Positions 23,264 to 37,636 of a stretch of DNA of 64,000 nucleotides are shown here, piece by piece. Source of the stretch: Escherichia phage PBM-2. The notes under the pieces are model-generated. The model saw nothing but the letters and a program-made list of their open reading frames with translations. It ran no database searches and was not told where the DNA came from. Location: sequence record PV029541; one strand, 5' to 3'. A program made the translations under genes and the position numbers. The stretch's first letter is position 1. The number at the start of each line of letters is the position of its first letter.

Positions 23264-23707
23264 ATGCAAATCATTTTGAACCAGTCCGAAGTAGAAGCTG
23301 CTGTACAAGCTTATGTCGATGATCAAATCAATCTTGCTGGTGACATTAATATTGTCATCAATGCAGATGGTACAGCCTCCGTTGGTATCAACGAAGAGGT
23401 AAGTCATAACGATGATACTCCACCCTTGGTAGAGAAGAAGACGCGTCGTTCTCGTAAGAACCCTCAGGAAGCTAAACACCGTCCGGTAGAACCGGAACCG
23501 GAAGAAGTGGTTGAAGAGGTAAAGGAAGAAGAAACCCAGACCTCTACTGGTGGACAGAACGAGAGTTCTACGCCGGAACCTGAAGAAGAAGCAGTAGCTG
23601 AACCAGAAGCACAAGAAGAAGTTGTGCAGGAAGAGGTTAAGGCTGAAGAACCAGCAGAGAAACCTGCTACTAAGCCTTCACTGTTCGCTGGCCTTAAACG
23701 TAGTTAA
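23264..23707 (+). CDS. acidic Glu/Pro-rich protein, function unknown
   Basis: C-terminal half is strongly acidic and low-complexity (EPEPEEVVEEVKEEETQ...EPEEEAVAEPEAQEEVVQEEVKAEEP). Confidence 0.5.
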   Translation: MQIILNQSEVEAAVQAYVDDQINLAGDINIVINADGTASVGINEEVSHNDDTPPLVEKKTRRSRKNPQEAKHRPVEPEPEEVVEEVKEEETQTSTGGQNESSTPEPEEEAVAEPEAQEEVVQEEVKAEEPAEKPATKPSLFAGLKRS

Positions 23708-23938
23708 TCTGGTAGGTGGCTCAGAAGCTGCTGCTAGGTGTGGTAGTGTTTATAGTCCTGATGCTACTACTGGTCAGGATTATAGACGTGTCGGCTCCAT
23801 ACATAGCTTTTATCATCACTGTCATTATCCTGTGGAAATGCAGTGGTAAACACGGTGGTGACAAGCCGCCAGAGTAACAACAACCGAACCAGTCCCCTTT
23901 AATACTCTCCGAAGGGGATTGGTTCAAACGAGGTTAAC

Positions 23939-24109
23939 ATGAACAAATTTACTATTCACTGGCTCAATGGAAAGGTTAGTTCTTTCGTGGGTGGAGAACC
24001 TGTTGAAGGGAACAAAGCATTCCACATTGATTCAGAAGGTTGCAAAATCTTAATACCATATGCTTGGTATAAAGATGGTGAAGTAAAGGCATTAAAAAAG
24101 AGTAGTTAA
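23939..24109 (+). CDS. small hypothetical protein (56 aa)
   Basis: ATG at 23939 with GAGG 8 nt upstream; below the length cutoff of the supplied ORF track. Confidence 0.35.
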   Translation: MNKFTIHWLNGKVSSFVGGEPVEGNKAFHIDSEGCKILIPYAWYKDGEVKALKKSS

Positions 24110-24789
24110 TATCGTGAAGGGTTCTGTTAGAATCCTTTGAGATAGGAACTCCTATCATAACCTTTCTTAACTTAATCTTTGCCGTATGGCACTGACGCTA
24201 GGGGTGGACCCCCATCCGTCAGACAGACTATTTTAAGAATTGGTTATCACAGCAAATGTAAAGCAACATTCGGGTTAATCAATGGCCTCTCCCTATAGGG
24301 GCCATTTCTGAATCTTAGGCTATATCCCAAAGGTTAGTATCTTTAGGATAAGGCTTCAGATCCCTTATCAAACTAACCGCTCAATGTTGAGCATTCTAAT
24401 CACATAAGCCCCTATATGGGCTGGGTTAAATGTCGGATAGCCTAGCTACCTACAACATCGAACTGTTAGATCTTACATGCAATATAGGGTATAAAGGGAG
24501 GATTCGTCCCCTCCCCCCTATTATGGGCTATCAGTGAGTGCATTAGTTGATTAGCTGTGGAAGGTAGGCCGATGTCCACAAGCGTGGCCCAGAGCTAGTG
24601 TACTCTTTGATAGTTTTCGTAAGCGATTATGCGGTTTTTTAGAAACGAACCAATAACATAAATGCAAACGATGATGTTGTTCTGATGGCAGCCTAATAAG
24701 CCAAGCGTCAGTCAGGAGTGAGTCGTCCTGATTATCAAACGACCGTGGAGTGTCCCCGTCCATGTATTAGAAACGGGGAGTTAATCAAT

Positions 24790-24867
24790 GGTATGTGATA
24801 GCTCAAATAGGTAGAGCGTGAGGCTACAGTGCTGAATGGTTTGTGGGTTCGATTCCCACCCATGCCT
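24790..24867 (+). tRNA. tRNA-like gene, isotype unassigned (possibly degenerate)
   Basis: Canonical 5' half (U8 A9, D arm GCTC-AAATAGGTA-GAGC) and T arm GTGGG-TTCGATT-CCCAC, but acceptor pairing is imperfect and the anticodon stem is weak when folded by hand. Confidence 0.35.
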
Positions 24868-24933
24868 ACAGTCCAGACGATATCTGAGTGACTATAAAAA
24901 CAGATGGAGCCAGGTGGAATCCCTGGCAATTAA

Positions 24934-25000
24934 TTCCGGTGTAGGTACTAGTGTCGTGCACGGCATGAGTGTTCTGGTTCGAGTCCAGACGCCGGAACCA
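24934..25000 (+). tRNA. tRNA-like element with encoded CCA, shortened
   Basis: T arm TCTGG-TTCGAGT-CCAGA, acceptor TCCGGTG/CGCCGGA, discriminator A then CCA; only about 63 nt between acceptor strands, so D and anticodon arms cannot both be canonical. Confidence 0.35.
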
Positions 25001-25002
25001 AT

Positions 25003-25126
25003 TATCAGTTGCACGAGATGGCTTGACATGTTCAAGTTTGGACTAAGTGTGACACCGCTAGATTGGAGGGCTGCTGCGGTAAGCTATAGACTCCAACCGG
25101 AGGTTCGAATCCTTCACTGATAACCA
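25003..25126 (+). tRNA. tRNA-like element with encoded CCA, elongated
   Basis: Perfect 7-bp acceptor pairing TATCAGT (25003-25009) / ACTGATA (25116-25122), T arm GGAGG-TTCGAAT-CCTTC, A + CCA; the 121-nt span is too long for a standard tRNA. Confidence 0.3.
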
Positions 25127-25573
25127 ATTCAAAGTAGCATTGTATATTTAAATGTTTCCCGGCATTTAAAGCACCCACCGTGACAGTGCTACTCTAAATT
25201 GGAAGAATTATGGGGGTAAGTCGTAACCATACGACGGCGTAAGTACCAGATGAGACTTCTGGACGCCCCTACCATATTTGAGGTGTAACAGTTAAATCCA
25301 GTTGCCGGAAGTGCAATTCTAGATACGCTGCCAATGTGTGAACGGTAAGGCTGTACAGGACTCGGACTCCCACCTCAAACCAAAGTCGCCAGGTACTTAT
25401 GGCAAACGGGTAGTAACGAACTAGTCATTCGTCAAACGCCCAACCCAATTATGAGTCAGCAAGAACGCCTTCACTTAAACTTAAACAAAAAAGCTTAACG
25501 CAATAATTATGTAGGGGTATGTAAGGATTGCGAAGAAGGAGCCAGTTAGAGTCTGGCATGACTCACCTATTAA

Positions 25574-25649
25574 TACCCGGTAGGCTTAGTGGTAAAGCCC
25601 CACTAGTAAACCAACTAGGACGCAGGTTCGAATCCTGTCCGGGTAACCA
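25574..25649 (+). tRNA. tRNA gene with encoded CCA, anticodon arm irregular
   Basis: Acceptor TACCCGG/CCGGGTA, D arm GGCT-TAGTGGTAA-AGCC, T arm GCAGG-TTCGAAT-CCTGT, A + CCA, 73 nt + CCA; anticodon arm pairs only as CTAG(T)/(A)CTAG, leaving a 6- or 8-nt loop. Confidence 0.5.
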
Positions 25650-25655
25650 TATTAT

Positions 25656-25729
25656 GTCCGCTTAGCTTAGACTGGGAAAGCAACCGACTAATAATCGGAA
25701 AGTCACTGGTTCAAATCCAGTAGTGGACA
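25656..25729 (+). tRNA. tRNA gene, apparent anticodon AAU (Ile-type) if the hand fold is right
   Basis: Full cloverleaf, 74 nt: acceptor GTCCGCT/AGTGGAC, D arm GCTT-AGACTGGGA-AAGC, anticodon arm ACCGA-CTAATAA-TCGGA, T arm ACTGG-TTCAAAT-CCAGT; no encoded CCA. Confidence 0.6.
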
Positions 25730-25974
25730 CCCATTTAGCAGTAACATAGTCCTGATTGCATCGCACTCTAAAGACAACACTGGTAAGACAGTCCAGTGGC
25801 TGCTATTGTATTGTTATTCCCTTCGACGGGAATTTCGCTGGAGAATAGGAACTCCTTAAATCCTAGCCTGAGTAATTACCACAGGAACGGGACTATCAAT
25901 CCCAAGCCTGGTCAGCGTGGACTGTCTTCGTGGTAAGAACCAAAAGCCTCCCAGCTATGGGTAAATAGTACTAA

Positions 25975-26008
25975 GTCCCCTGGAGCCGTCACTCTGGGGG
26001 ACTTTTTT
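25975..26008 (+). terminator. rho-independent terminator closing the tRNA cluster
   Basis: GTCCCC...GGGGGAC stem followed by TTTTTTATTT. Confidence 0.55.
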
Positions 26009-26037
26009 ATTTGAGTATTAATAATTGGATAATCAAT

Positions 26038-26196
26038 ATGATTGACCTAATCTCAACCCCGTATGCCTATGAGGTAACGGATAATCGAGGACGCAAGTCT
26101 TTGGTGTTTGCAGGTAGCGTAGCCTATAACAACGCAGTCATGTTTAAGTACAAACTCAAACCACTCTATGAGGCTAATAATGGCAACAGTAAGTAA
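26038..26196 (+). CDS. small hypothetical protein
   Basis: ATG at 26038 (the ORF-track start at 26011 is TTG inside the terminator T-run); no clear RBS. Confidence 0.3.
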   Translation: MIDLISTPYAYEVTDNRGRKSLVFAGSVAYNNAVMFKYKLKPLYEANNGNSK

Positions 26197-26560
26197 AGAA
26201 GCAATCGAAGCTAAGATTAAGAGCGTCTACTATTTTAATGGAGCTGATGCAGTGAAGTCTGCATTTGTTGATCCATCTGCACTCCCGGCAGATGATTTGG
26301 CTAACCTGGGTCTGATAACCTATTGCATTATCATCTTGGAAAATGGCTTCAAAGTTGAAGGTGTATCTGCCTGTGTTGACCCAGCTATCTATGATGAGCA
26401 AAAAGGCCGTCAGTATGCATATGAAAATGCATTCAATAAGATTTGGGAATTAGAAGGTTACCTGCTACGTCAGGCACTGCATGAGAAAGAAGAGACTGCT
26501 AAAGCTCTGGCTTCCTTTGCAGAAAACAACACCTGTGATGGTGGTGGTTGTACAATCTGA
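26180..26560 (+). CDS. hypothetical protein
   Basis: ATG at 26180 with GAGG 6 nt upstream; conserved-looking core GVSACVDPAIYDEQKGRQYAYENAFNKIWELEGY; no family recognised. Confidence 0.45.
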   Translation: MATVSKEAIEAKIKSVYYFNGADAVKSAFVDPSALPADDLANLGLITYCIIILENGFKVEGVSACVDPAIYDEQKGRQYAYENAFNKIWELEGYLLRQALHEKEETAKALASFAENNTCDGGGCTI

Positions 26561-26641
26561 TTCAAAAGTGTAAGGTAGTTTTTACCGAAAGGTACTGAAC
26601 TACCCGACATGTGGTAAGGCTCATGAAGCCAAAACAAAACA

Positions 26642-26669
26642 AGCCCTCCTAGTGAGGGCTTTCTCATTT
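26642..26669 (+). terminator. stem-loop, possible terminator or attenuator
   Basis: AGCCCTC-CTAGT-GAGGGCT stem followed by TTCTCATTT; lies between two + strand genes. Confidence 0.4.
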
Positions 26670-26678
26670 GAGGTAGTT

Positions 26679-27179
26679 ATGTCAGAAGAAATTAAAGTCC
26701 ATTTTACCAATTATATCGGAACCAAGTGTGTAAATGGTTTCCGAATGAACAAAGAAACATACTGCAAACTTCGTGGCTGGGATGTACCTGCTAATGAAGA
26801 CCCATTAGAAGAAGGTTACTTAGTAGAGTACCCAGACTCTAAGTCTAACCATCCTCAGTTCCGTGGCTATATTAGCTGGTCACCTAAATCTGCATTTGAA
26901 ACTGCGTACCATGACGTAGAAAAAGGTTGCACCTTTGGTCATGCAGTAGAGCTTCTCAAATCCGGCTTCAAACTAGCCCGTAAAGGCTGGAATGGTAAAG
27001 GAATGTACATTGAGTACGTTGCTGCTCAAGAATGGAATAGCAGTAGCTTAGAGCGTCCAGGACTTGCTGATGAATTGAAACCTCGTCCATGGTTAGGAAT
27101 CAAAACTGTTGATGACCAGTTTATGCCTTGGGTCCCATCCCAATCAGATATATTAGCTGAAGACTGGGTGTTAGTTTAG
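26679..27179 (+). CDS. two-domain protein with C-terminal DUF2829 (Tad2-like) domain
   Basis: C-terminal FGHAVELLKSGFKLARKGWNGKGMYIEYV...PWLGIKTVDDQFMPWVPSQSDILAEDWVLV matches the DUF2829 pattern as recalled (KGWNGKG ... PW..SQ.D.LAEDW); ATG 26679 with GAGGT upstream. Confidence 0.5.
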   Translation: MSEEIKVHFTNYIGTKCVNGFRMNKETYCKLRGWDVPANEDPLEEGYLVEYPDSKSNHPQFRGYISWSPKSAFETAYHDVEKGCTFGHAVELLKSGFKLARKGWNGKGMYIEYVAAQEWNSSSLERPGLADELKPRPWLGIKTVDDQFMPWVPSQSDILAEDWVLV

Positions 27180-27187
27180 TAAAAATT

Positions 27188-27214
27188 AAAGCCCCTCTAA
27201 TGAGGGGCTTTTTC
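27188..27214. terminator. bidirectional rho-independent terminator between convergent modules
   Basis: AGCCCCTC-TAAT-GAGGGGCT stem flanked by an A-run on the left and T-run on the right; between the + gene ending 27179 and the - gene ending 27217. Confidence 0.65.
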
Positions 27215-27216
27215 AT

Positions 27217-30200
27217 TTAGTTAGCTAGATTGAGCCAAGGGTTAAGGTTATGGGCACGAAGTCCCTGACCGAAGCCCCAGGAGTAACCGAGATTGCCTTG
27301 TGCAGCAATACTGAAGATGTTGTCCTGAATAGGTAAACCAACATTACCAAACATGGTAGGAGTTGGAGCCAACATAGCCATAGCTGCGTGTACCGGGTTG
27401 TTACGAATCATGGATACTGCAATTTTTGCAGAACGAATCTTAAAATTATAGAACCACATAAGACCAACACTTTCCATATACCCACGGAAGCGACCAGGCA
27501 GACGGTCATAGTTAATGAACTCTTCCGTTACACGTCCAAGTGCTTCTTCACGAGTCTTACCTTTACGCTGAGTCAAATCATCATAGATGATTGCTTTAGC
27601 AATAAAGTCAGAGTACTCAACCGTCTTCTGGATACCCTGGAATAAAGCAGTATCCTTGGTGATAAGGGCATAACGTCCAGCATTACGTACAGACTTAGGT
27701 AACTTATCAGCCAGTTTATCCATGTATTCGTGAAGTTTACCTTCAGTAATCAGGATGTCATCTCGTCCAATACCAGCATCTGCAATTGAAGAAAACTCAC
27801 CAGCTTCTAACAGAGGCCAGATACTCATACGCTTATGACTATCAGTGATGGACTGAATTTCAGCCTTAAGCTTACGAATCTGGTTCGGGTTAGTAGCTGC
27901 ACGTAATTCTGCTTCTGCATCTACCTGACGCAGACGAGATTTCAGGTACTGGTTAATCTCAGCAGTCTTCTGTGGAATGCTCTTAGCAATGTTCTTAACA
28001 GGTACACCACGACCAACCATCTGGTAAAGGTTAGCCAGGAAGTTAACAGCAGGAACAACTACTGATTTAACTACAATCAGAGTCTTAGCTTCTTTAACTA
28101 AGTTTTGAACCAGGTTCTCACCACCCATTACATACTTATAAGCACGGTTGCCGAATACACCCAACATAGCTTTCTTGAAGGTATCCAGTGTTTCTGGTGA
28201 CCAACGAGAATTGCCAGACCAGGCATCACCTACGGAAGCTGCACGATAGCCCAGTGCATCATTCAGCATGTCACGACGTACCCACAACTCACCAGGACCA
28301 AACAGACTTTCTGCTTTCTGACGAGTTTCACTGTTCATCAGCTTAAGGGCATCAGCAGTTACTGGGTCCAGTTTAGAACCAAGAAGGTTAACGTACTGTG
28401 ACTTGTTAGAGGCAGACATTTTAATGTCGTTTTCATACATGCTATGCAGGTTCTCAATCAGCATATCGTTAAAACGCTGAGCCTTAGCTTCCTCTACCTG
28501 ACGACCACGCCATACACCGATTGCACGAGCGAGATGGTTCTCACCCTCAATGTGCTTCAGCATGTTAGGGTCAATAGATTGCTCATAAGCAACCACATTG
28601 CCTTTATCATCATATACAGGCAGCAGTGGTTCATTACCACGTTCACCGCGAGCCAGTGCTTTAGTGATACGGTCTACAGAAGGCTTGTCAGTGATACGAC
28701 CAGCTACCATTGTACCCATCGTAAAGCCTGTACCAAGGTCTACACCACCAGCAGTATTGCGAACGTTCTGTAAGATACCTTGCGAGAATGGAGCCTGTGC
28801 CTGTACCGGTGCAAAGTAGTAGCTACGTGCTGGACCACGATTAGCAGAGCTACCCTGATAAGTACCCAGACGTACATAGGACTTCTCAATCAAATCAGCA
28901 AACTGACTATCTTCAGCAACAATCAAGTTAACACCCTGTTTAGTCTCACCAGGAATATACCCTTTGTACTGGTTCAGAGTTGCACGAGTATCAGATTTGG
29001 CTTTAGCCATTTCATCTTTACGCTGACCAACCAGATAAGAAGTAGCGAAGTCCATGCCTTCAATCTCTGTCTGAGCCAGTGAAGATAACATCTCACGGTC
29101 AGTCTTACTCATTGCTTCCAGTGCATACAGAGTAATCAGTTTATCCAGTTGAGCTACATCTACAGTAGAACGTGCAGCCTGTCGTTCACCCAGCATACGA
29201 GAGATTGCAGTAGCATTACGCAGCAAGTTATTACCAACTGTGCCATTAATCATGTACTGAGCCAGTTGCTTAGATTTACGGCTAATCAAAGGCCAGTTAC
29301 GTCCTGCTTGTTTCTGCAAATCTGCTTCCAGCTTATTCACTTCACGGTCAACAATCTTTTGGTCAGTCAGCAAGTCACGAATTTCACCCAGAGACATAGT
29401 GTCACGCAGAACAGCTAAGTCGGTTTTACCCATACCGGTATGCATTGCTTTCCACTCATCATTAGTAAGCTTACGGCTGAACTTAGATGCAATAGTGGTA
29501 GGCAAATGTTCACGGAACTGCTGACGGTCAGCCTGTACCTGTGCACGCACTGCTTTAATCAAATCATATACAGAAGCATTGCTCTTAGTACGACCAGTTA
29601 AGTCATTAACCAGGTCATGGAAAGGTTGCCATACCTTACCCTGGTTCATTGCAGCCATAACACCCTCAGCTACGATTGCACCATTTTTCTCTGTAGCAAT
29701 AGCAGCTATTAGTTGTGCAGCATGAGCAGCACCTTTAACCAACGGGTTCTTGGTATTAGCTGCAACTTCACGAGCACCCTCTAAAGCACGGGTAGACAGT
29801 ACATCAATAGAATCCACCAGATACTGGTTAGCACGGTCGATAGCATTACCACTAGGAGTAGCAATGGAATCATAGAAGGACTGCGCATTGAGACTCGTCT
29901 GCATGATTGTCTGAGCCAGTGCATCCATACCTTCCTGTACGTTGGTAGCTTTAGTATCTCCTGCTACACGAGCATTCAGACTAGCCATTGCAGCAGTACC
30001 GATGTTAGTCAGCATTGCATCAGCGGTATTGCCAGATTTCTTGTCTACTTTCATAACAGGAATGTCAGCCAGTACTTTACGCACTTCTTCACTTACCATT
30101 GCCAGACCAACAAAGGTAGGCAGTAAGGAAGAACGGCCTTGTGCATCAAACTCAATGTTGTTAGCACCCATGATGGTATCGAACTTCTGCTGTGCATAGT

Positions 30201-33200
30201 AACGGTCAGCAGGGTTAGTACTATCTGGGTCAGCCATGAATGACTCAACGGTCAGGTTCTTAGTAACATGTGTGTAGTATTCCTGTGCACGAGCCAGAGC
30301 AGCAGGATTAATAGCAGCTTCAGTAGCCAGTGCAGCAACAATGTTAGTAAAGAGACGTTGTTCCTGCATATTCATAGTGAAGCCATGAGCCTGAACATCA
30401 CGAGTTACTTTAGTCGCATTAACCACTGCATCAGAGAACTTACCTTTACGAATTACTTGCTGTACTGGTTCAGAACCAATGTAGTCAGTAATCAGTTTAT
30501 CGAAGGTTTTCCCTAGCTCTTCCAGACGAGTATTGTCACCATACGTTTTGTTATGGAACAGAGTAGTATCTTTGGCTACAGCAGCAGTAGGAGCTTGCCC
30601 ACGCATAACTACGGACGAGTTAAACAGTAAGCCAGAGAACATATCATCTGCATTAGCTGGTGCTTTCTTACGCCCAAATACCAGACGCTTGATTGCTTCA
30701 TATACAGCCTGAACCATAGTCTTCAGTGCAGTGGTTTTCTTCTGCTTACTAATCAGTTCACGGTTAGTTAAACCCCATGCCATGTACTCATTCAGTGCAG
30801 CAGCTTTAGCCATTGCTGGCTCAATGAAGCCATTAGATAGATGACCGTTAATAGTATTAAGAGCATCTGCATATGCTTCCCGAACTGCCGGGGATTCATC
30901 CTTAACATCCAGAGCACGGAACTGGTTCATCAGGTCTTCAATGTTCTGGACCGCTTCATTAGGAGTACCCTCATAGTGAGCCAGTACAGATTCAAAAGTA
31001 GAAGCATGCACCAATTCATGAACCAGAGTCTCTAAGGAAGGGGTAACTAAGTAGATGGTCTTATCTTCAAAGTTAGTCCAACCATACGCATTACCAGCTT
31101 CAGCAGCTTCAATATCTTCTGGTGCTGGGCGAGTAATATTCTTCTCAATAGCATAAGCATCCAGTTGGGAAGGTGTACCGTAAACAACCTTATAATCTTT
31201 AGCAGCAAGGGATTTCTGTACTTCTTTCAGTACTGCTTGCTGTTCCGGAGACATCTCTTTAGCCAGCTTAGAGATAGCAGTATTAGACAGTAGGCGTACA
31301 CCAGACTTCAGTACACGACCAACCTGTTCCATTGCTGGCACTTCTTTCACTGGTTCTACTTTAGCAGCACGTACTGCATCACGACGTTTGTTTAATTCAG
31401 CATCGAACAGTTCATTTAGCTTAGCTACTTGTTGGTCTACGGTCAGACCTTCCAGAGAGATTTTACCGTTGTTCACATAAGGAGCACCAACAGCAGCCAT
31501 CTGGTCAACAGTAGTCTGTACCTGGTTCATTACTTTGTGACGAATATCTACACCCAGAGCAATATTACGCAGGTTACGTTCAATCTGTTCAGCACCAACA
31601 CGTAACAGGTCATCGGTAGCACCTTCACGCTGGTCATATTCCAGAGCAGATTTAGCGATAGCCTGTTTGGTTTCATCAGATAGTTTGCTGAAGTCTACGT
31701 TCTTCATGAACTTAGTAAAAGACTCATAAACATTCTTGATAGGGTTACCCTGCCAGGAAGTGTATACAGCCTCGTTAGCTTTACGACTTGCATCAGTGAT
31801 GTTGTCGATACCAATGTTCATACCATCAAAGATTTTCAGGGTATTCTTCGGAGCACCTTTCATAGTAGAAAGGGTCTGCATCATCATGCCATCACCAGTG
31901 CCAATGGTCATAAATGGAATACCTGCAACGCCTGCCTGAGAAGGAGCATAGATGCTCATTGGCACACGCATACGGTCATCTAAGTTGGTAGCCAGTACCT
32001 GGTTAGCAACATCAGTATTCTCACTACCAGCAATATAGAAAGTCTGTGAACCAGTCTCAATCATTGGAGCCAGTGGAGACAATGATTCCTGAATTTCATT
32101 CAGTTCTTTCTGTGTTAAGAAATCACCCTTCTTCCAGGTTGGGTCTTTTTCTTTTTCTGCCAGCTTAGCCTGTACTGCTTGTTGGAACATGTCTTGTAGA
32201 ACCAAAGACTGAATCTGGGTAGCCTTCTGCAAGTTCTCAGTAGAATGCATCAGACCTTCCCCAACAGTATTCCGGATACCAGTACGCATTGGTTCAACGA
32301 ACAGGTGAAGCATGTTCTCTTGTAAGTTCTTCAGGGCATTACCCGATACGGTAAACTTCTGAGGGTCTAACTTACCAGTCAGAGCACCTTCTACCTGTTG
32401 AATAGACAATTCACCTTTACGCATAACTGGAACATTACCAGTCAGTGCTTCCATAGAAGTAAGGAAAGTATCCAGCATAGCCTGAGCATCAGCCTCAGAC
32501 GCAGCCTCCTTACCAAACATTGCCATAGCTGGGGAAATACTAGGGTCAGCAGCACGAGCTTGCAGAACATCACTGAAGCGTTCATAGATGGTATCAGTAA
32601 TTGCACTAACCATCTTGCCAGCAATACCACGAGCACCTGAACCATAGATGGTAATGGTCAGTGGGTTTTTAGCGATACCACGTTTTAGGTCCAGAGTACC
32701 GTCTTCATTCAGGTTAAAGTCTTTAATAAACAGGTCCATTAACTTCTGAAGATGATTCATTTGGTTCATAACCGGAACGTTGTTACGGTAAGTAGTACGT
32801 AACTCATTAAGTGCTTGTTGCAGACCATTGGTAGATGCTTCATACAGGTCAACACTGTCATCCTGTGAACGATGCTCATTCATAGTCTTACCAGCTTTAC
32901 CGAAGAACAGACCACCTTTAGCAGTATTCTTAATCCAGTCTGAAGTGAACTTACCACCTGTCATTAATATCATTGCGTTGATTGGTCCGTTGGTTACACC
33001 ATCGGCTTCAACGTACAGTGGGGTATTAAAGTTGGCACGGTCATCACTGTTCAGGTAACGGGCATATTCCATAAGAGCCATGAGAGCTACGAATGATTTA
33101 TCGCCACCCAAAGAAGTCTTCAGAATATCTACTGCATCAGCTGGTAAGTGGCCAGACTTATCAAACTCAACCATCATATCAACAGCAGGTTTCAGATTAC

Positions 33201-36200
33201 CTTCCAGAGCTTTGGTCAGCTTTTCAGACATAGCTTCACGGGACATATTATGTACCTTGATACCCAATGCCTGAGCCAGTCCTAGCTGGAAGTCAGAGAA
33301 TGTTTGGCTGTTTTCATTACTCAAGTCAATAGTAGAGAAGGTTGGCAGAATTGCTTCACGAACCAGTTTACTGGATTGTGGGTTGTTCTTACCTAACATC
33401 TGCATACGACCTACACGGGTCATGTTGTAACCATAGTGAATAGGCGTATCCAGACCATTCTCCTGTTCCTGTAACTGGTTGATTACACCGAACAGGGAAT
33501 CATATGCCATAGACACTGACAGGTTTTTACCCTCCAGTGACTTAGCAGTGTTCACGTTCAGCAGTTCAGGATTAAGAGTACCAGCACCCATCAGTTCCAG
33601 AATGTTGTCACGACCTAATGCTTCATAGAAGTTAACCATCGGCATGTGTACACGGAACTCGGTAGCCTGTTCTGCTTTAAGAGCAGCTTTCTGCTCTGGG
33701 GTATTCTTAACAGCAGGGTTACGTAACTGAGTTTGAGCCACGGAAGGAATATCATCACCAAAGTACATTTTCTCTTCTGGTTCTACGAGAACAGCTTCCT
33801 CGATAGCAGTAGGGAACTTGTTAATGGCATCGTTATCATCCAGCTTCTCAATGGTATACAGACCGACGGTCTTATTAGAGTCTGGGTCAATCTCAGACAC
33901 ATCAAGCATAGACTCTTTAACTTCACCCATCTCAATGAGAGAAGACAGAATCTCTGTAGCCATTGCCATTGGAATACCTTTGGTATAACCCAGTGGTGCA
34001 TTAGGATTACGATTCAATCCCCAGTAAGATTCAATCTTTTGAGCCAGTGAGTTAGTAGCTTCAACCAGAGTCTGAGCATTCTCAAATTCAGCCAGGATAC
34101 CTTCAGGTAACAAGGATGCTTCTACTCCAGTAATAGCAGCTACATCTTTCATGTCTTTAACAGCAGCATTCTGTGTAGCAGTCAGTCGCCATTGCAGACC
34201 AGCAAGTACAGCAGTCTCTAACAACTGGTCATTGAACTTAAAGGTGTCTCCGTCTTTCTCTACGATATTAAGTAACTTACCACCTACCCAACGGTTAGCC
34301 TCTGTGCCTTCTGCAAAGCGTTTACCAACGTTCTTATTAGCAAGAAACTTAGCCAGACGATCAGACAGAGTAGTCTTCAGAGTTTCACCAAAGCCCATTA
34401 AGTCCTGATAACGCTTAATCACATCACTTGTGAGAGCGTTATTTTCTTTTTGAGTGAATGCTTCAAAGCGTGCAGTAGAAGACAGTGCTTGCTTAATATC
34501 AGTCAAAGGGGATTCAGAACCAATGGTGCGAGACTTAGGTTCTTCCGGCAGGGTAAATGATTTCAGGAACTGGTTCGGTGTCTTGTCATTGTTATAGACA
34601 GGGAAAACTGTTTCCATTTCCGTTTTAGTTTCAGCTACTTTTTGAGTGGTATCCTCATTGGTGAGGGTAGCATCTACTGTTTCAGACTTAGTAGTAGAGA
34701 CTTCTTCTGCTTTTGAACTAGCCTCTTTAACAGGAACAGTCTTATTTTCTACCACTGGTTTAGCTTTAGGCTGTACAGTAGTAGTAGTAGTCTCTTGCGC
34801 TGGTGCAGGAGTTTCATCAACCTGATTCACTGGTTCATTGGTCTGTTGAGACTGAGTGGCATCAAGACCACCTTGACGGAACTCTTTAACTACCTGGGCA
34901 GCAGGCTTGTCCAGACGTGAATCTAATGGAGTAACCTTCACATGAGAAACATTAAGCTCCGGGTAAGCCGTAGCAAGTGCGTTAGCAATATCAGCTACGG
35001 TTTTGGCCTCCAGTCCTACTTGCTGGGCAAACTTAACCGACTTGGTATCATACGGATTGACACCAAGACCAGTACGACTACGTACCCATTCACGGGAGGG
35101 AGTAAGAGCCTGATAATGGACAGACTTATTCTTATCCGCATTCCCAGAAATCAGATGCTCATTCAACGCTCCGACCTTATTCTGCATGTGCTGGGCGAAC
35201 TTCATAAAGTCGTCGAGGTAAGCGGAAGCCAAATCGAAGTTACCAGAGTTGTACGCAGAACGAATGCGTTTAGCATGTTGCAACGCAGAGTACTGACCTT
35301 CATTAGAACGAGACTCGTCGGTTTTAATCTGTTTACTAACAATGTCTTGAGGACGTAAGCCTAGTTCTTCTGCTTTAGCGTCAAATTCTCGTGCTCCTTG
35401 CAATAGAGCAGCAGCAGATTGCAGGGCAGCACGCTGACGATTCCCCAGTGTAATCTTACCTTCACTTGCATGTTTCAGAACCATGTTCACTGAGTCTGCA
35501 TCCAGTACTTCTGGAGACATATCAGCAGCCATAGCAATGTTGTTTGCTTGGGCTTGGTTAGCTTCTTCGGTAGCTTTCAGTTTACCTGCTTCAGCCTGTT
35601 CCTGAATCATAGAATGGATGGCACGGAATGCACGAAGTACCTTTGGTGTATTCTGAACGTTAGCCATCAGGCCGGAGAACTGGTCAACAATATTAGCAGC
35701 AGGAGAACCCTGTTCCAGATTAGCTAAAGCACCAGGATCACGGTTAATGAAGCTATCCATAGACATGATGTTGTCATACATCTGGATTGCAGCTTCCATT
35801 TGAACGTTAGGGTCTTCAGTAGTATTAACCAGGTCTGCCATCTTCTGAATAGCTTCCACACGGTTAGTGGAACCAGAAACAGCTTCACGGATTGTAGGAC
35901 TAGCTTGCTCCAGTTCTACTGGGTCAAACTTCATTGCCTGAGTTAAGTCAGCAGCATACTGAGTAGCAGCAGCTTTCTCTTCAGGAGAAATGTCCATTGC
36001 ATCTACTGCTTCCTGTACAGTTGCTTGTGCTTGTTCTGCTTGAGCAGTAGCTTCTTGTGCAGCAGCATTAACCGTAGCATCTGATACAGGGGATGCTTGC
36101 TCATTACGCTTAGCAACTTCTTCGCCACGCTGAACCAGGATGTTAGTAATAGGAGAGGCAGCTTTTGCTAATGCACTACCAACCAGAGAAGCACCAGCCA

Positions 36201-37572
36201 GAGTAGTACGTAAAGCAGGCCCAGCAGAAGCACCAACAGCTTTAACAGTTGTACCTGGAGCCTGAGCAACACCAGCACTACCGAAGCCGTAGAGTGCACC
36301 AAGACCTGCTTGCTCACCGACACCTTTAAGCAAATCACGCTTAGCATCTACATTACCCTGAATTGCCTTGTTCTGTGCAAACTGACTTGTACCAGACTGA
36401 ATACCTTCTTCTACTGTTTCACGTAGCATGTTAGAACCAGCACCAGCCAGCGAACCTACCTTAAGTGGGTTAAGTTCAAATTTGGATACCAGAGGACCAG
36501 TAGCAGCAGCAACCGGAGCAGTTAAGCCAGCAGCAATGATACCCGTTTCAGATGCAGTTTGGCGACGTGCTTCATCAGGAGATAAACCATCAGCGATATG
36601 CTGTTGATAAACAGGAGACTTACTTGCCAATTCTTGATGGGACATCTTCATGATTTCGGAAGCAGTCTGTTGGTATGCACCACCAGCTTCCATACCACCA
36701 ATTGCAATAGCAGGTGCAGCAACACGACCAGCAGACAATGCAACCTGTGCAGGACGTGAACCTAACTCAGCAGCTAAGGTAATACCCTTAACAGCTTTAT
36801 CACCACCTACCATTACTTTACCGAGTGCAGATACACCACGAATTAATGGACCACCGGTAAAGAGAGAACCAACACCTTCACTCAGCCCATCAGTAGCAGC
36901 CATACCATTATCAAGCGTATTAGCAACAGAATCAAAAGCATCACGACCAATACGAGACAGAGAGGCAACCAAACTGCTCTCTCCATTTTTAATGTCTTCT
37001 TCGTAGAGTTTCTGGTTCTTTTGTGCAGAAATCTGGTTCTGATTCTGAACAACCTTACGGGTAGCATTCAGTGCGTCAGACTGTAGATTGTGTACCCCTT
37101 CATTCAGCCAATCCATCCCGGAAGCAATGGATGCCCCGGCATTATCATTGACCAAACCCGTACCAAGAGCAGCAATGCCCCCAAGGGTATTAGCAACACC
37201 AAGACCAACACCAGAAAGAGTATCACCAAATGCTTCTGCGTTAGTACGTTGCTTAGATAAGTCCTGACGTACAACATCAGCAGCATTAGCTCGGCTATTA
37301 AGAATCTGTAGACCTTGCTCATTACCGTATTTATTAAGAATTTCTAATGGGGAGGCTTGAGTGAAATCTGCCTGAAGTGAACCTGGTTCGAATGCACCGA
37401 TTCCAAGATTACCTACACGACCAGTTTGGAGATTGTAAGCATTCTCTGGGGTTAATTGGAAAGGGCTTTGCCCTTGTGCAGCTTGCTTCTGAGAGGTTGC
37501 AGTAGAGACATCGACTTGCTTAGCATTAGTGATGCTGTCTGCGAAACCTGCCAGACGGTCAAATGTTGACAT
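27217..37572 (-). CDS. virion-encapsidated RNA polymerase (N4 vRNAP-like giant protein)
   Basis: About 3450-aa single ORF, the hallmark of N4-like phages; ATG at 37572 with AGGA upstream (ORF-track start at 37590 is TTG). Confidence 0.9.
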   Translation of the reverse strand: MSTFDRLAGFADSITNAKQVDVSTATSQKQAAQGQSPFQLTPENAYNLQTGRVGNLGIGAFEPGSLQADFTQASPLEILNKYGNEQGLQILNSRANAADVVRQDLSKQRTNAEAFGDTLSGVGLGVANTLGGIAALGTGLVNDNAGASIASGMDWLNEGVHNLQSDALNATRKVVQNQNQISAQKNQKLYEEDIKNGESSLVASLSRIGRDAFDSVANTLDNGMAATDGLSEGVGSLFTGGPLIRGVSALGKVMVGGDKAVKGITLAAELGSRPAQVALSAGRVAAPAIAIGGMEAGGAYQQTASEIMKMSHQELASKSPVYQQHIADGLSPDEARRQTASETGIIAAGLTAPVAAATGPLVSKFELNPLKVGSLAGAGSNMLRETVEEGIQSGTSQFAQNKAIQGNVDAKRDLLKGVGEQAGLGALYGFGSAGVAQAPGTTVKAVGASAGPALRTTLAGASLVGSALAKAASPITNILVQRGEEVAKRNEQASPVSDATVNAAAQEATAQAEQAQATVQEAVDAMDISPEEKAAATQYAADLTQAMKFDPVELEQASPTIREAVSGSTNRVEAIQKMADLVNTTEDPNVQMEAAIQMYDNIMSMDSFINRDPGALANLEQGSPAANIVDQFSGLMANVQNTPKVLRAFRAIHSMIQEQAEAGKLKATEEANQAQANNIAMAADMSPEVLDADSVNMVLKHASEGKITLGNRQRAALQSAAALLQGAREFDAKAEELGLRPQDIVSKQIKTDESRSNEGQYSALQHAKRIRSAYNSGNFDLASAYLDDFMKFAQHMQNKVGALNEHLISGNADKNKSVHYQALTPSREWVRSRTGLGVNPYDTKSVKFAQQVGLEAKTVADIANALATAYPELNVSHVKVTPLDSRLDKPAAQVVKEFRQGGLDATQSQQTNEPVNQVDETPAPAQETTTTTVQPKAKPVVENKTVPVKEASSKAEEVSTTKSETVDATLTNEDTTQKVAETKTEMETVFPVYNNDKTPNQFLKSFTLPEEPKSRTIGSESPLTDIKQALSSTARFEAFTQKENNALTSDVIKRYQDLMGFGETLKTTLSDRLAKFLANKNVGKRFAEGTEANRWVGGKLLNIVEKDGDTFKFNDQLLETAVLAGLQWRLTATQNAAVKDMKDVAAITGVEASLLPEGILAEFENAQTLVEATNSLAQKIESYWGLNRNPNAPLGYTKGIPMAMATEILSSLIEMGEVKESMLDVSEIDPDSNKTVGLYTIEKLDDNDAINKFPTAIEEAVLVEPEEKMYFGDDIPSVAQTQLRNPAVKNTPEQKAALKAEQATEFRVHMPMVNFYEALGRDNILELMGAGTLNPELLNVNTAKSLEGKNLSVSMAYDSLFGVINQLQEQENGLDTPIHYGYNMTRVGRMQMLGKNNPQSSKLVREAILPTFSTIDLSNENSQTFSDFQLGLAQALGIKVHNMSREAMSEKLTKALEGNLKPAVDMMVEFDKSGHLPADAVDILKTSLGGDKSFVALMALMEYARYLNSDDRANFNTPLYVEADGVTNGPINAMILMTGGKFTSDWIKNTAKGGLFFGKAGKTMNEHRSQDDSVDLYEASTNGLQQALNELRTTYRNNVPVMNQMNHLQKLMDLFIKDFNLNEDGTLDLKRGIAKNPLTITIYGSGARGIAGKMVSAITDTIYERFSDVLQARAADPSISPAMAMFGKEAASEADAQAMLDTFLTSMEALTGNVPVMRKGELSIQQVEGALTGKLDPQKFTVSGNALKNLQENMLHLFVEPMRTGIRNTVGEGLMHSTENLQKATQIQSLVLQDMFQQAVQAKLAEKEKDPTWKKGDFLTQKELNEIQESLSPLAPMIETGSQTFYIAGSENTDVANQVLATNLDDRMRVPMSIYAPSQAGVAGIPFMTIGTGDGMMMQTLSTMKGAPKNTLKIFDGMNIGIDNITDASRKANEAVYTSWQGNPIKNVYESFTKFMKNVDFSKLSDETKQAIAKSALEYDQREGATDDLLRVGAEQIERNLRNIALGVDIRHKVMNQVQTTVDQMAAVGAPYVNNGKISLEGLTVDQQVAKLNELFDAELNKRRDAVRAAKVEPVKEVPAMEQVGRVLKSGVRLLSNTAISKLAKEMSPEQQAVLKEVQKSLAAKDYKVVYGTPSQLDAYAIEKNITRPAPEDIEAAEAGNAYGWTNFEDKTIYLVTPSLETLVHELVHASTFESVLAHYEGTPNEAVQNIEDLMNQFRALDVKDESPAVREAYADALNTINGHLSNGFIEPAMAKAAALNEYMAWGLTNRELISKQKKTTALKTMVQAVYEAIKRLVFGRKKAPANADDMFSGLLFNSSVVMRGQAPTAAVAKDTTLFHNKTYGDNTRLEELGKTFDKLITDYIGSEPVQQVIRKGKFSDAVVNATKVTRDVQAHGFTMNMQEQRLFTNIVAALATEAAINPAALARAQEYYTHVTKNLTVESFMADPDSTNPADRYYAQQKFDTIMGANNIEFDAQGRSSLLPTFVGLAMVSEEVRKVLADIPVMKVDKKSGNTADAMLTNIGTAAMASLNARVAGDTKATNVQEGMDALAQTIMQTSLNAQSFYDSIATPSGNAIDRANQYLVDSIDVLSTRALEGAREVAANTKNPLVKGAAHAAQLIAAIATEKNGAIVAEGVMAAMNQGKVWQPFHDLVNDLTGRTKSNASVYDLIKAVRAQVQADRQQFREHLPTTIASKFSRKLTNDEWKAMHTGMGKTDLAVLRDTMSLGEIRDLLTDQKIVDREVNKLEADLQKQAGRNWPLISRKSKQLAQYMINGTVGNNLLRNATAISRMLGERQAARSTVDVAQLDKLITLYALEAMSKTDREMLSSLAQTEIEGMDFATSYLVGQRKDEMAKAKSDTRATLNQYKGYIPGETKQGVNLIVAEDSQFADLIEKSYVRLGTYQGSSANRGPARSYYFAPVQAQAPFSQGILQNVRNTAGGVDLGTGFTMGTMVAGRITDKPSVDRITKALARGERGNEPLLPVYDDKGNVVAYEQSIDPNMLKHIEGENHLARAIGVWRGRQVEEAKAQRFNDMLIENLHSMYENDIKMSASNKSQYVNLLGSKLDPVTADALKLMNSETRQKAESLFGPGELWVRRDMLNDALGYRAASVGDAWSGNSRWSPETLDTFKKAMLGVFGNRAYKYVMGGENLVQNLVKEAKTLIVVKSVVVPAVNFLANLYQMVGRGVPVKNIAKSIPQKTAEINQYLKSRLRQVDAEAELRAATNPNQIRKLKAEIQSITDSHKRMSIWPLLEAGEFSSIADAGIGRDDILITEGKLHEYMDKLADKLPKSVRNAGRYALITKDTALFQGIQKTVEYSDFIAKAIIYDDLTQRKGKTREEALGRVTEEFINYDRLPGRFRGYMESVGLMWFYNFKIRSAKIAVSMIRNNPVHAAMAMLAPTPTMFGNVGLPIQDNIFSIAAQGNLGYSWGFGQGLRAHNLNPWLNLAN

Positions 37573-37636
37573 AGCATGTTTCCTGTTCAAACTTATATCG
37601 TATATAGAAAGCTTACTCTACAGTAAGCCAGTGTAA

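Follow-up and report, generated by a model that had tools for sequence, protein, structure and literature searches.

A conserved, unannotated phage RNA with a tmRNA-type tag frame and an arm complementary to host tmRNA

A stretch of 64,000 nt from Escherichia phage PBM-2 (sequence record PV029541; hereafter the window, meaning this whole stretch) was analyzed, and within the interval of about 3.5 kb between its replication and late gene blocks we found a conserved structured RNA of ~180 nt which we term tag-template RNA ("tag RNA"). Tag RNA resembles the mRNA-like domain of a transfer-messenger RNA (tmRNA), it lacks a tRNA-like domain, and its 5' arm is complementary to the tmRNA of the host. 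Trans-translation is the main bacterial ribosome-rescue pathway, and several phages need it. The explanation which best accounts for the findings overall, with a probability of roughly 0.5, is that tag RNA is a free-standing RNA which would dock on host tmRNA and replace its template. The parts of the element, all on the + strand, are as follows.

24611-24788, + strand: tag RNA, tmRNA-like mRNA domain without a tRNA-like domain, ~180 nt (covariance model, 136 bits)
24611-24651, + strand: 5' arm, antisense to nt 57-106 of host tmRNA (36 predicted pairs)
24659-24699, + strand: U(-5)A(-4) signal, resume codon GCA at 24664, tag ANDDVVLMAA (24664-24693) and stops TAA TAA (24694-24699)
24682-24711, + strand: helix 5 analogue, in which tag codons 7-9 pair with sequence after the stops (outer helix 100% paired, 3 of 4 pairs changing on both sides)
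24712-24731, + strand: hairpin UCAGGA/UCCUGA (98.6% paired, compensatory changes in 5 of 5 pairs)
24745-24779, + strand: H-type pseudoknot with stem A GUGGA/UCCAU and stem B UCCCCG/CGGGGA

A conserved tag frame without a tRNA-like domain

When Rfam was searched at a relaxed E-value, the tmRNA_permuted model matched positions 24594-24696 at 32.7 bits, which is below its gathering threshold of 47, and the element of siphovirus S192 reached 27.3 bits. Other tmRNA models gave 15-21 bits on tag RNA, and Rfam was found to hold no family for tag RNA itself. The 3' end of the tmRNA_permuted match reads AUAAAU GCA AAC GAU GAU GUU GUU CUG AUG GCA GCC UAA UAA. A frame of 10 codons followed by a stop was present in 126 of 126 pattern-matched copies, obtained by a pattern scan of IMG/VR which returned at least 120 loci, and in 137 of 137 full-length covariance-model copies (the model recovered 138 copies among the loci collected). 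Counted over 29 distinct 33-nt versions, all with a stop at codon 11, single-nucleotide codon differences were synonymous or non-synonymous in a ratio of 503:609 in the tag frame versus 48:1192 and 285:908 in the other two frames, so that the tag frame is under coding-type selection. There is no start codon in this frame, and an in-frame UAG is conserved eight codons upstream. The six bases preceding the frame were N-U-A-A-N-N in 34 of 34 distinct versions, with an invariant U-A at -5/-4 which occupies the positions of U85/A86 of E. coli tmRNA; A86 hardly varies among tmRNAs and, in that of E. coli, is the main reading-frame determinant (PMC2481249).

The copies specify 19 distinct tag peptides of the form AN[DE]x..[AV]A. 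Compared with the host tag the AND(D/E) start is kept, the middle is hydrophobic, and the end is MAA, VAA or AVA instead of LAA; judged by sequence, such ends appear degron-like. Phage HK620, in which the element lies between pR'/qut and the holin gene, encodes ANEEMYLAVA, and siphovirus S192, in which it follows a TTGACA-17-TAGATT promoter of its own, encodes the same peptide as the window (ANDDVVLMAA) with GCG GCG replacing GCA GCC. In P1-like phages, where the element precedes tRNA-Asn and tRNA-Thr, the tag is ANDDLMMVAA. Among the more divergent members are PC3 (GCT AAT GAT TCG GAA GTT CTG ATG GCG GCG, giving ANDSEVLMAA), STP07 (ANDNTFLAVA), Sf16 (ANDNVFLAVA) and Farigoule (ANDNEMRAAA), and in both PC3 and STP07 codons 1-2 carry synonymous changes (GCT AAT).

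With respect to distribution, 491 of 50,697 phage records (~1%) carried the element, and these belonged to 46-kb siphoviruses, N4-like phages, Ackermannviridae (Vi1-like), Ounavirinae (Felix O1-like), P1 and P7, lambdoid phages (HK620) and Chaseviridae. In all carrier records the feature column at tag RNA read either "none" or "hypothetical protein", and in the searchable literature no paper was found which contained the tag peptides or described a phage antisense RNA to tmRNA. About 670 of 5,426 complete E. coli genomes matched part of a 1.9-kb query, mostly over the tag-RNA segment and in P1-like plasmids and lambdoid prophages. Among species-representative bacterial genomes only four contained the exact pattern, three from Enterobacterales and one a metagenome-assembled genome labelled Bacillota; the match in the latter (locus L131) lies on a 5.9-kb contig which is probably a mis-binned enterobacterial phage contig.

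Genomic contexts differed between phage groups. Sigma-70 promoters were observed directly upstream of the element in the siphoviruses and in Sf16, where the element has a promoter of its own and is flanked by tRNA-Ile and tRNA-Arg inside a tRNA array. Lambdoid prophages carry it between Q and the holin gene, and in the curated P1 genome an unannotated copy extends from 68886 to ~69070, downstream of the C1-controlled ban promoters and directly after the annotated dicF-like region. In the P1 ban-operon leader the dicF-like region (L140 16792-16893, equal to P1 68791-68892) comes first, tag RNA second and a helix module third, followed by tRNA-Asn and tRNA-Thr, and under C1 control this leader forms an array of RNAs which are putatively trans-acting.

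All-against-all comparison of flanks delimited a shared block of ~185 nt (-60 to +125, counted from the start of the frame) in 123 of 125 distinct loci. Its 5' boundary is sharp, always at (U)AGUUUUCG, and the sequence before it varies, being a sigma-70 promoter or a terminator in some phages and a long helix module or a tRNA in others. Pairing downstream of the frame was assessed in a covariance-model alignment of 70 distinct rows. The helices were paired in 89.8% of cells, versus 38-49% with slid partners; 15 of 21 pairs changed on both sides, and 0 of 500 shuffles came up to these values. Since tag codons 7-9 pair with sequence past the stops, the stop codons are placed in a loop; the inner helix of this helix 5 analogue was only 63% paired in the same alignment. 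Both the MAFFT and the covariance-model alignments misregister the pseudoknot stems of N4-like and P1-like copies, by one column in the covariance-model alignment, and the structure counts are therefore underestimates. Inspected by eye these stems covary too, stem A occurring as GUGGA/UCCAU, GCAGA/UCUGU, CGCAC/GUGUG and CGCAG/CUGUG, and stem B as CCCCG/CGGGG, CCCUGA/UCAGGG and GGCGGGAG/CUCCCGCC. A possible analogue of pseudoknot 1 (PK1) of tmRNA can be drawn from GUUUU/GAAAC with CUUUG/CAAAG, where sequence variation is too small for covariation. A second, partial covariance-model match (L042 1273-1378) consists of the pseudoknot module alone after unrelated sequence, and the pseudoknot may thus also move as a separate module.

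No tRNA-like half accompanied these copies. By default ARAGORN reported no tmRNA in 13 of 13 contexts, the tRNA-like domain was deleted in the Rfam alignment, with only sub-threshold Rfam matches at the tag, and no universally co-occurring partner module emerged from the flank comparison. T-arm motifs were observed at variable distance from tag RNA, or at many loci not within 1 kb, and a search of the window for a partner complementary to the 5' domain returned matches of 7-8 nt only. At a relaxed ARAGORN threshold (-ps80) a one-piece tmRNA was called at 24581-24867 which would include the tRNA-like gene just downstream (24790-24867, tRNA-like 1). This candidate was rejected, as neither the pairing nor the neighbour is conserved; relatives which keep tag RNA lack tRNA-like 1 or hold another gene in its place, and we treat the call as due to chance. 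Taken as a whole, the element, which is mobile and structured, is very probably a real conserved RNA gene with a translated tmRNA-type frame.

The 5' arm, proposed docking on host tmRNA and the alternatives

The segment of host tmRNA to which the arm is complementary, with E. coli K-12 ssrA as the host reference, comprises the 3' half of PK1, U85/A86, the resume codon and tag codons 1-6. Helices are predicted between the seed UAGUUUUCGU and host nt 97-106 (tag codons 3-6), between GCGAUUA and host nt 85-91 (U85, A86, the -1 triplet and the GC of the resume codon), and between UGCGGUUUUUUA and host nt 68-79 (the 3' strand and loop of PK1). Across arms, 36-40 pairs to host nt 57-106 were predicted, and the lambdoid and P1 arms are near-contiguous antisense copies (AGUUUUCGUCACGUUAGCGACUUUGCGG versus the reverse complement AGUUUUCGUCGUUUGCGACUAUUUUUUGCGG). 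Composition-matched shuffles of the duplex, run on the three main types of arm, gave z values of -5.9 (window), -5.1 (S192) and -4.7 (P1), and global alignment of the arms to the reverse complement of ssrA gave z values of 4-9. An empirical null was drawn from 18,238 55-nt windows of this phage (mean 14.8, standard deviation 2.2, maximum 29). The 55 distinct arms had a median score of 33 and a maximum of 43, with 42 of 55 above the null maximum; the arm of the window scored 26 (z 5.0), a value reached by a fraction of 0.0012 of the null.

The mean pairing energy was -21.0 kcal/mol between arm and host versus -9.2 kcal/mol between arm and its own template, and the host was favoured in 43 of 43 combinations. 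The seed GUUUUCG hardly changes although codons 3-6 of the element itself vary, which argues for an external and invariant target. Lineages whose arms vary at other places all retain the seed and the complement to the resume codon. The tmRNAs of Escherichia, Pantoea, Hafnia and Mixta have the target segment in identical or almost identical form, that of Proteus (tag ANDNQYKALAA) differs in it, and this conservation fits the host genera of the carrier phages, namely Salmonella, Klebsiella, Escherichia, Shigella, Erwinia, Citrobacter, Enterobacter and Cronobacter. On these comparisons of sequence, it is probable that the arm targets host tmRNA.

Docking on host tmRNA is the simplest mechanism which makes use of the arm, the frame and the structure together. 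A discrete tag RNA transcript of ~180 nt would start near UAGUUUUCG, and we infer that it is expressed in PBM-2. The seed UAGUUUUCGU would pair in vivo with the single-stranded tag-coding region of host tmRNA, and pairing would spread across the resume codon, so that the host template would be masked and the phage template tethered to the alanine-charged tRNA-like domain of the host. Host tmRNA and tag RNA would then form a chimeric two-piece tmRNA, and a ribosome which host tmRNA and SmpB have rescued would continue on the phage frame and attach a tag specified by the phage, here A-ANDDVVLMAA. That the template is replaced rather than simply blocked is a tentative part of this reading, to which we give somewhat less than even odds, and so is its extension to a widespread class of phage RNAs which hijack host ribosome rescue in trans by both silencing and substituting the host tag template, a proposal that falls short of probable. 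A different tag could possibly be of advantage by redirecting or tuning proteolysis, by sustaining rescue when host tmRNA is damaged, or by shielding tmRNA from nucleases.

Several observations weigh against docking and template replacement. The ribosome would have to accept a template whose only anchor, in the place of PK1, is a long imperfect duplex. PK1, which makes up about half of the arm target, is structured in native tmRNA, leaving ~29 nt of the target freely accessible, and minimum-energy folds also allow the arm to pair with the resume region of its own RNA. The score of the window arm is below the null maximum and falls in the weakest class, the N4-like arms being the shortest class, and the duplex of Sf16 was not significant against shuffles (z -1.4). 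Raw duplex energy against the whole tmRNA gave no separation between the arm and GC-rich windows taken from this phage; raw RNAduplex energy was dropped in favour of the composition-matched shuffles and the alignment score with its empirical null. The 5' domain varies too little for covariation, and its long arms are truncated in the covariance-model alignment. A search for a Proteus-adapted variant of the seed returned zero matches.

The main alternative is that tag RNA is purely an antisense inhibitor, which would block tagging or rescue or trigger RNase III cleavage, with the 3' part serving as an untranslated mimic or stabiliser, for example by binding SmpB, S1 or RNase R. The complementarity does span the host resume codon and A86, the P1 element follows a dicF-like antisense RNA, and there is a precedent in the tmRNA form without coding sequence of mycobacteriophage DS6A, which is reported to inhibit host tmRNA (PMC11915505). 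Mimicry alone, however, does not predict the coding-type selection on the frame, with its constant 10 codons, its excess of synonymous and third-position changes and its synonymous variants in codons 1-2, although the helix 5 constraint could account for part of the third-position pattern. On balance we regard pure inhibition as unlikely, with something over one chance in five. A lower probability still is given to tag RNA being the coding piece of a one-piece or two-piece phage tmRNA whose acceptor is a neighbouring tRNA-like gene, here 24790-24867. The relaxed ARAGORN call (24581-24867) joins 5' GCGUGG with 3' CCAUGC (G3.U70) and the T-arm of tRNA-like 1, a tRNA-like gene always directly follows the pseudoknot in N4-like phages, and the element sits in tRNA arrays in several families. 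The acceptor pairing, however, is not conserved: phages Mimir124 and PhAPEC5 lack tRNA-like 1 yet keep the element, and the tRNA-likes which follow differ among relatives. Across contexts no flanking block co-occurs with the element, many loci are without a T-arm within 1 kb, and a 6-bp match with a G.U at position 3 is expected by chance in ~250 nt about 1 time in 10 by our own estimate. A phage tmRNA of this kind is accordingly considered improbable.

Two further readings were judged very improbable. A decaying, functionless relic, left by an ssrA fragment once captured or by its inverted duplication, is suggested because the arm and the tag frame resemble one part of ssrA copied in antisense and in sense orientation. 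Against decay, the element is found in 491 records and at least six unrelated phage groups with sharp boundaries, compensatory changes maintain its helices, and the frame is intact in every copy. Direct similarity to E. coli ssrA is confined to GCAAACGA, which indicates that the element is old and has been retained; for the same reason, the sense similarity being limited to GCAAACGA, recent capture from E. coli ssrA was rejected. An ordinary small open reading frame (ORF) or leader peptide read by normal initiation, for example in the overlapping AUG frame MQTMMLF*, could draw on an AUG which overlaps the resume codon (AAAUGCAA) and on a weak purine run upstream. The AUG frame nevertheless varies from 4 to 8 codons and is the one with synonymous and non-synonymous differences of 48:1192, while the frame which is conserved has no start codon. 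Docking with template replacement continues to be our preferred reading, and we infer that the phage frame is used by ribosomes.

The interval around tag RNA

Escherichia phage PBM-3 (PV053165.1; N4-like, Schitoviridae, Gamaleyavirus) is 100% identical to the window, and the interval matched more than 200 phage records. A first reading of the window, made from sequence only, had described ~3.5 kb between a + strand replication block and a - strand late block, and this was confirmed by gene ends at 23707 (replication block, + strand) and 27217 (3457-aa virion RNA polymerase gene, - strand). The latter gene (27217-37590, - strand) is mislabelled "DNA polymerase" in the GenBank record of PBM-3. 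The interval consists of a phage array of RNA genes and, behind it, small conserved genes including a Tad2-like one. In addition to tag RNA it contains the following features.

23716-23877, + strand: 53-aa hydrophobic ORF (phrog_19025, function unknown, E 5e-9), unannotated in PBM-3, with a homologue annotated in Mimir124
23939-24109, + strand: 56-aa ORF, function unknown (GenBank; phrog_14773, E 1.6e-41)
24106-24133, + strand: promoter-like site at the head of the RNA array (TTAATA, 16 nt, TG-TAGAAT; consensus scan)
24464-24610, + strand: upstream structured modules, a GGGAGG/CCUCCC hairpin and then a long helix 24529-24612 enclosing a pseudoknot-like insert (fold z -2.4)
24790-24867, + strand: tRNA-like 1, "tRNA-Cys(ACA)" in GenBank (ARAGORN relaxed only; two G.G mismatches in the anticodon stem)
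24923-24999, + strand: tRNA-like 2 (ARAGORN relaxed only; 7-bp acceptor stem, T-arm, one further hairpin and encoded ACCA; one arm missing)
25003-25126, + strand: tRNA-like 3, 124 nt (ARAGORN relaxed only; acceptor UAUCAGU/ACUGAUA, T-arm and encoded ACCA)
25574-25733, + strand: tandem tRNA genes, 25574-25649 (6-nt anticodon loop) and 25655-25733 (Ile, AAU) (ARAGORN; Rfam tRNA 40.7 and 61.6 bits)
25973-26010, + strand: strong intrinsic terminator closing the RNA array (13-bp stem 25973-26004, then a T run)
26038-26196, + strand: 52-aa ORF, function unknown (GenBank; phrog_34266)
26180-26560, + strand: 126-aa Phage_gp49_66 family protein, N4 gp48 homologue (PF13876, E 1.2e-25; PhAPEC5 annotation)
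26679-27179, + strand: 166-aa protein with a C-terminal Tad2-like domain, N4 gp49 homologue (PF11195, E 2.8e-24)

The 56-aa ORF and three small genes named in the sequence-only reading agree in coordinates with the GenBank annotation, and they are joined by a second tiny ORF, the 53-aa one, where only a single one had been noted. For the 56-aa ORF there were zero Pfam or PADLOC matches. Between 24110 and 26010 (1.9 kb) zero ORFs had family support in the ORF list or in Pfam and PHROG searches. The ~0.7 kb described earlier as non-coding hairpins is not featureless, as it holds conserved structured RNA modules including 24611-24788. Terminator-like sites are enriched in the interval (13 versus 2.8 expected). 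Promoter-like sites numbered 7 versus 6.1 expected, and since the scan as a whole is not above chance it is only the position of the site at 24106-24133 which is suggestive.

Five elements with T-arms are present in the array, as had been claimed, although three of them (24790-24867, 24923-24996 and 25003/25031-25126) are non-canonical and appear at the relaxed threshold only; ARAGORN by default and the Rfam tRNA model accept two, and of the five only 25655-25733 is fully canonical, 25574-25649 passing with a 6-nt loop. The tandem tRNAs look duplicated, in that PhAPEC5 has a single copy (L002 3867-3937) to which both PBM-3 copies align. tRNA-like 1 gave zero matches to the Rfam tRNA model and is absent in PhAPEC5 and Mimir124; its anticodon stem is mismatched, it contains a U3.G70 pair, and it shows ~90% identity to unannotated segments of Klebsiella/Raoultella T4-like (~167 kb) and RaK2-like jumbo phages. 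The acceptor stem of tRNA-like 3 covaries (UAUCAGU/ACUGAUA in PBM-3 versus UACCAGU/ACUGGUA in Mimir124). An encoded 3' ACCA is found in three non-canonical tRNA-like RNAs (24923-25126 and 25574-25649), one of them that with the 6-nt anticodon loop, and these are possibly decoys or specialised RNAs rather than decoding tRNAs.

Upstream of tag RNA, helices equivalent to the 24529-24612 helix show compensatory changes in other phages. The hairpin and helix together (24464-24618) have ~83% identity to Kuravirus phages ES17, MN05 and KM01 (L139 900-1055), where the copy lies directly before a transcriptional-regulator gene without tag RNA, and the inner 47 nt (24546-24593) also occur in Vi1-like Ackermannviridae. 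Similar "H modules" recur (24529-24612; L004 2420-2515 and 2660-2790; L012; L053) as CACAAC-AGGU-AAGAGCA...UGCUCUU-UCC-GUUGUG helices with variable inserts and sometimes a T-arm. A fully compensated variant is CAAUGAGAGCAC/GUGCUCUCAUU, and the modules adjoin tag RNAs and tRNAs in many phages; they are possibly processing or stabilising elements. A permuted tmRNA with its acceptor piece upstream of tag RNA was considered here and rejected, as the H module is self-contained, with compensatory changes which link its own strands, and precedes a protein gene in Kuravirus. A further motif, AUUAUGUA(UA)GGGGUAUG.A.GGAUU.CG.AG, is present at 25505-25560, shortly before the tRNA pair, and recurs downstream of tag RNA in siphovirus loci (L005 2855-2910; L114).

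Comparison with close relatives revealed that the RNA part is mosaic, PhAPEC5 being without 24779-24869 and 25143-25382 and Mimir124 without 24779-24993 and 25211-25382. The 120 nt at 25268-25387, absent in both, have 84% identity to Enterobacter phage ENT3 (49 kb). As the interval shows, what is called the "tRNA cluster" in N4-like phages is for the most part composed of non-canonical tRNA-like and structured RNA modules swapped between unrelated phages.

The three small genes, in contrast, were kept at ~85% identity in relatives, and as this identity is retained and the two larger are annotated as homologues of N4 gp48 and gp49, these two are conserved N4-like genes rather than variable cargo. 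Apart from the 126-aa and 166-aa proteins, the small ORFs matched only PHROGs of unknown function. The Tad2-like domain of the 166-aa protein (PF11195) scored 85.9 bits against a cut-off of 25, and residues 84-166 align with solved Tad2 structures 9eib and 8v3e (E 1.7e-20), SPO1 Gp34.65 and AcrIIA7; by homology the protein belongs to a known anti-defence (anti-Thoeris) family. For the 126-aa protein, zero relatives with a solved structure were found. phrog_9467 matches the first 83 residues of the Tad2-like protein and also a central part of its gp49_66-family neighbour, and the two genes therefore share a domain. PADLOC returned nothing for any small protein of the interval.

The sequence-only reading had expected anti-defence cargo and an undescribed system in this interval. 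Both expectations were borne out in part. Profile searches of the small proteins produced the Tad2-like domain through Pfam, with nothing from PADLOC, but in a gene set which is conserved among relatives, not variable, and to which no core function is assigned; an undescribed element is indeed present, but as an RNA in the hairpin stretch and not among the small proteins. That the interval is mainly a variable, protein-coding host-interaction island whose RNA part is just tRNAs and terminators would agree with the presence of the Tad2-like gene and with the mosaic content among relatives. The protein genes are nevertheless the conserved part and the RNA modules the variable part, and the most widely shared element is tag RNA, so that this view of the interval is held to be improbable.

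Significance and comparison with known systems

If the proposed mechanism is correct, a portable RNA of ~180 nt which blocks host tmRNA or rewrites its tag would represent a new layer of host takeover and a natural example of re-templating tmRNA in trans. A tmRNA template lacking a tRNA-like domain would then be described for the first time, as would template replacement in trans-translation, and the RNA would be present in the model phages P1 and HK620 and in Felix O1-like, Vi1-like and N4-like phages. Annotation pipelines systematically miss tag RNA, which is found in ~1% of sequenced phage genomes yet is annotated nowhere and has no RNA family entry. The proposal opens to testing the dependence of phages on tmRNA, template loading after transpeptidation and tag-steered proteolysis during infection, and tag RNA may possibly be of use as a programmable tagging tool.

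Among proteins of the interval, the 166-aa protein resembles Tad2 (Thoeris anti-defence 2, formerly DUF2829) in a domain above the gathering cut-off and a full-domain alignment to solved Tad2 proteins. It differs in carrying 83 further residues at its N terminus, which are related to the gp49_66-type protein next to it, and its gene is conserved across N4-like phages and is not variable cargo.

Tag RNA shares with the standard one-piece tmRNA (SsrA) a GCA resume codon without a start codon, preceded by U-A at -5/-4 (PMC2481249), a 10-codon tag which starts with AND(D/E) and ends in small hydrophobic residues, one or more stops in the loop of a helix made with the end of the frame, and a downstream H-type pseudoknot. 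Unlike SsrA it has no acceptor stem, T-arm or CCA end of its own, it is only ~180 nt long with a single downstream pseudoknot, its 5' part is antisense and not homologous, and at the nucleotide level it resembles E. coli ssrA only in GCAAACGA. In the two-piece tmRNAs produced from permuted ssrA in Alpha- and Betaproteobacteria and Cyanobacteria, the template and the tRNA-like domain are likewise separate, base-paired RNAs (PMC11915505), and tmRNA_permuted is the best Rfam match to tag RNA, sub-threshold and with the tRNA domain wholly deleted. In contrast to these, the partner of tag RNA would be the complete tmRNA of the host and not a co-encoded acceptor piece, and pairing would cover PK1 and the host template rather than the acceptor and P2 helices.

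The closest precedent found is the mini-tmRNA without coding sequence of phage DS6A, also a phage-encoded partial tmRNA and reported to interfere with host tmRNA (PMC11915505). While the DS6A RNA keeps the tRNA-like domain without a template, tag RNA is its mirror image, a template without a tRNA-like domain. With antisense RNAs such as DicF and the P1 dicF-like region, tag RNA has in common that it is a short phage RNA with a conserved 5' seed complementary to a host RNA, and in P1 it directly follows the dicF-like region in the same C1-controlled leader. It differs from them in that its predicted target is tmRNA rather than an mRNA or small RNA, and in that it also carries a template under coding-type selection.

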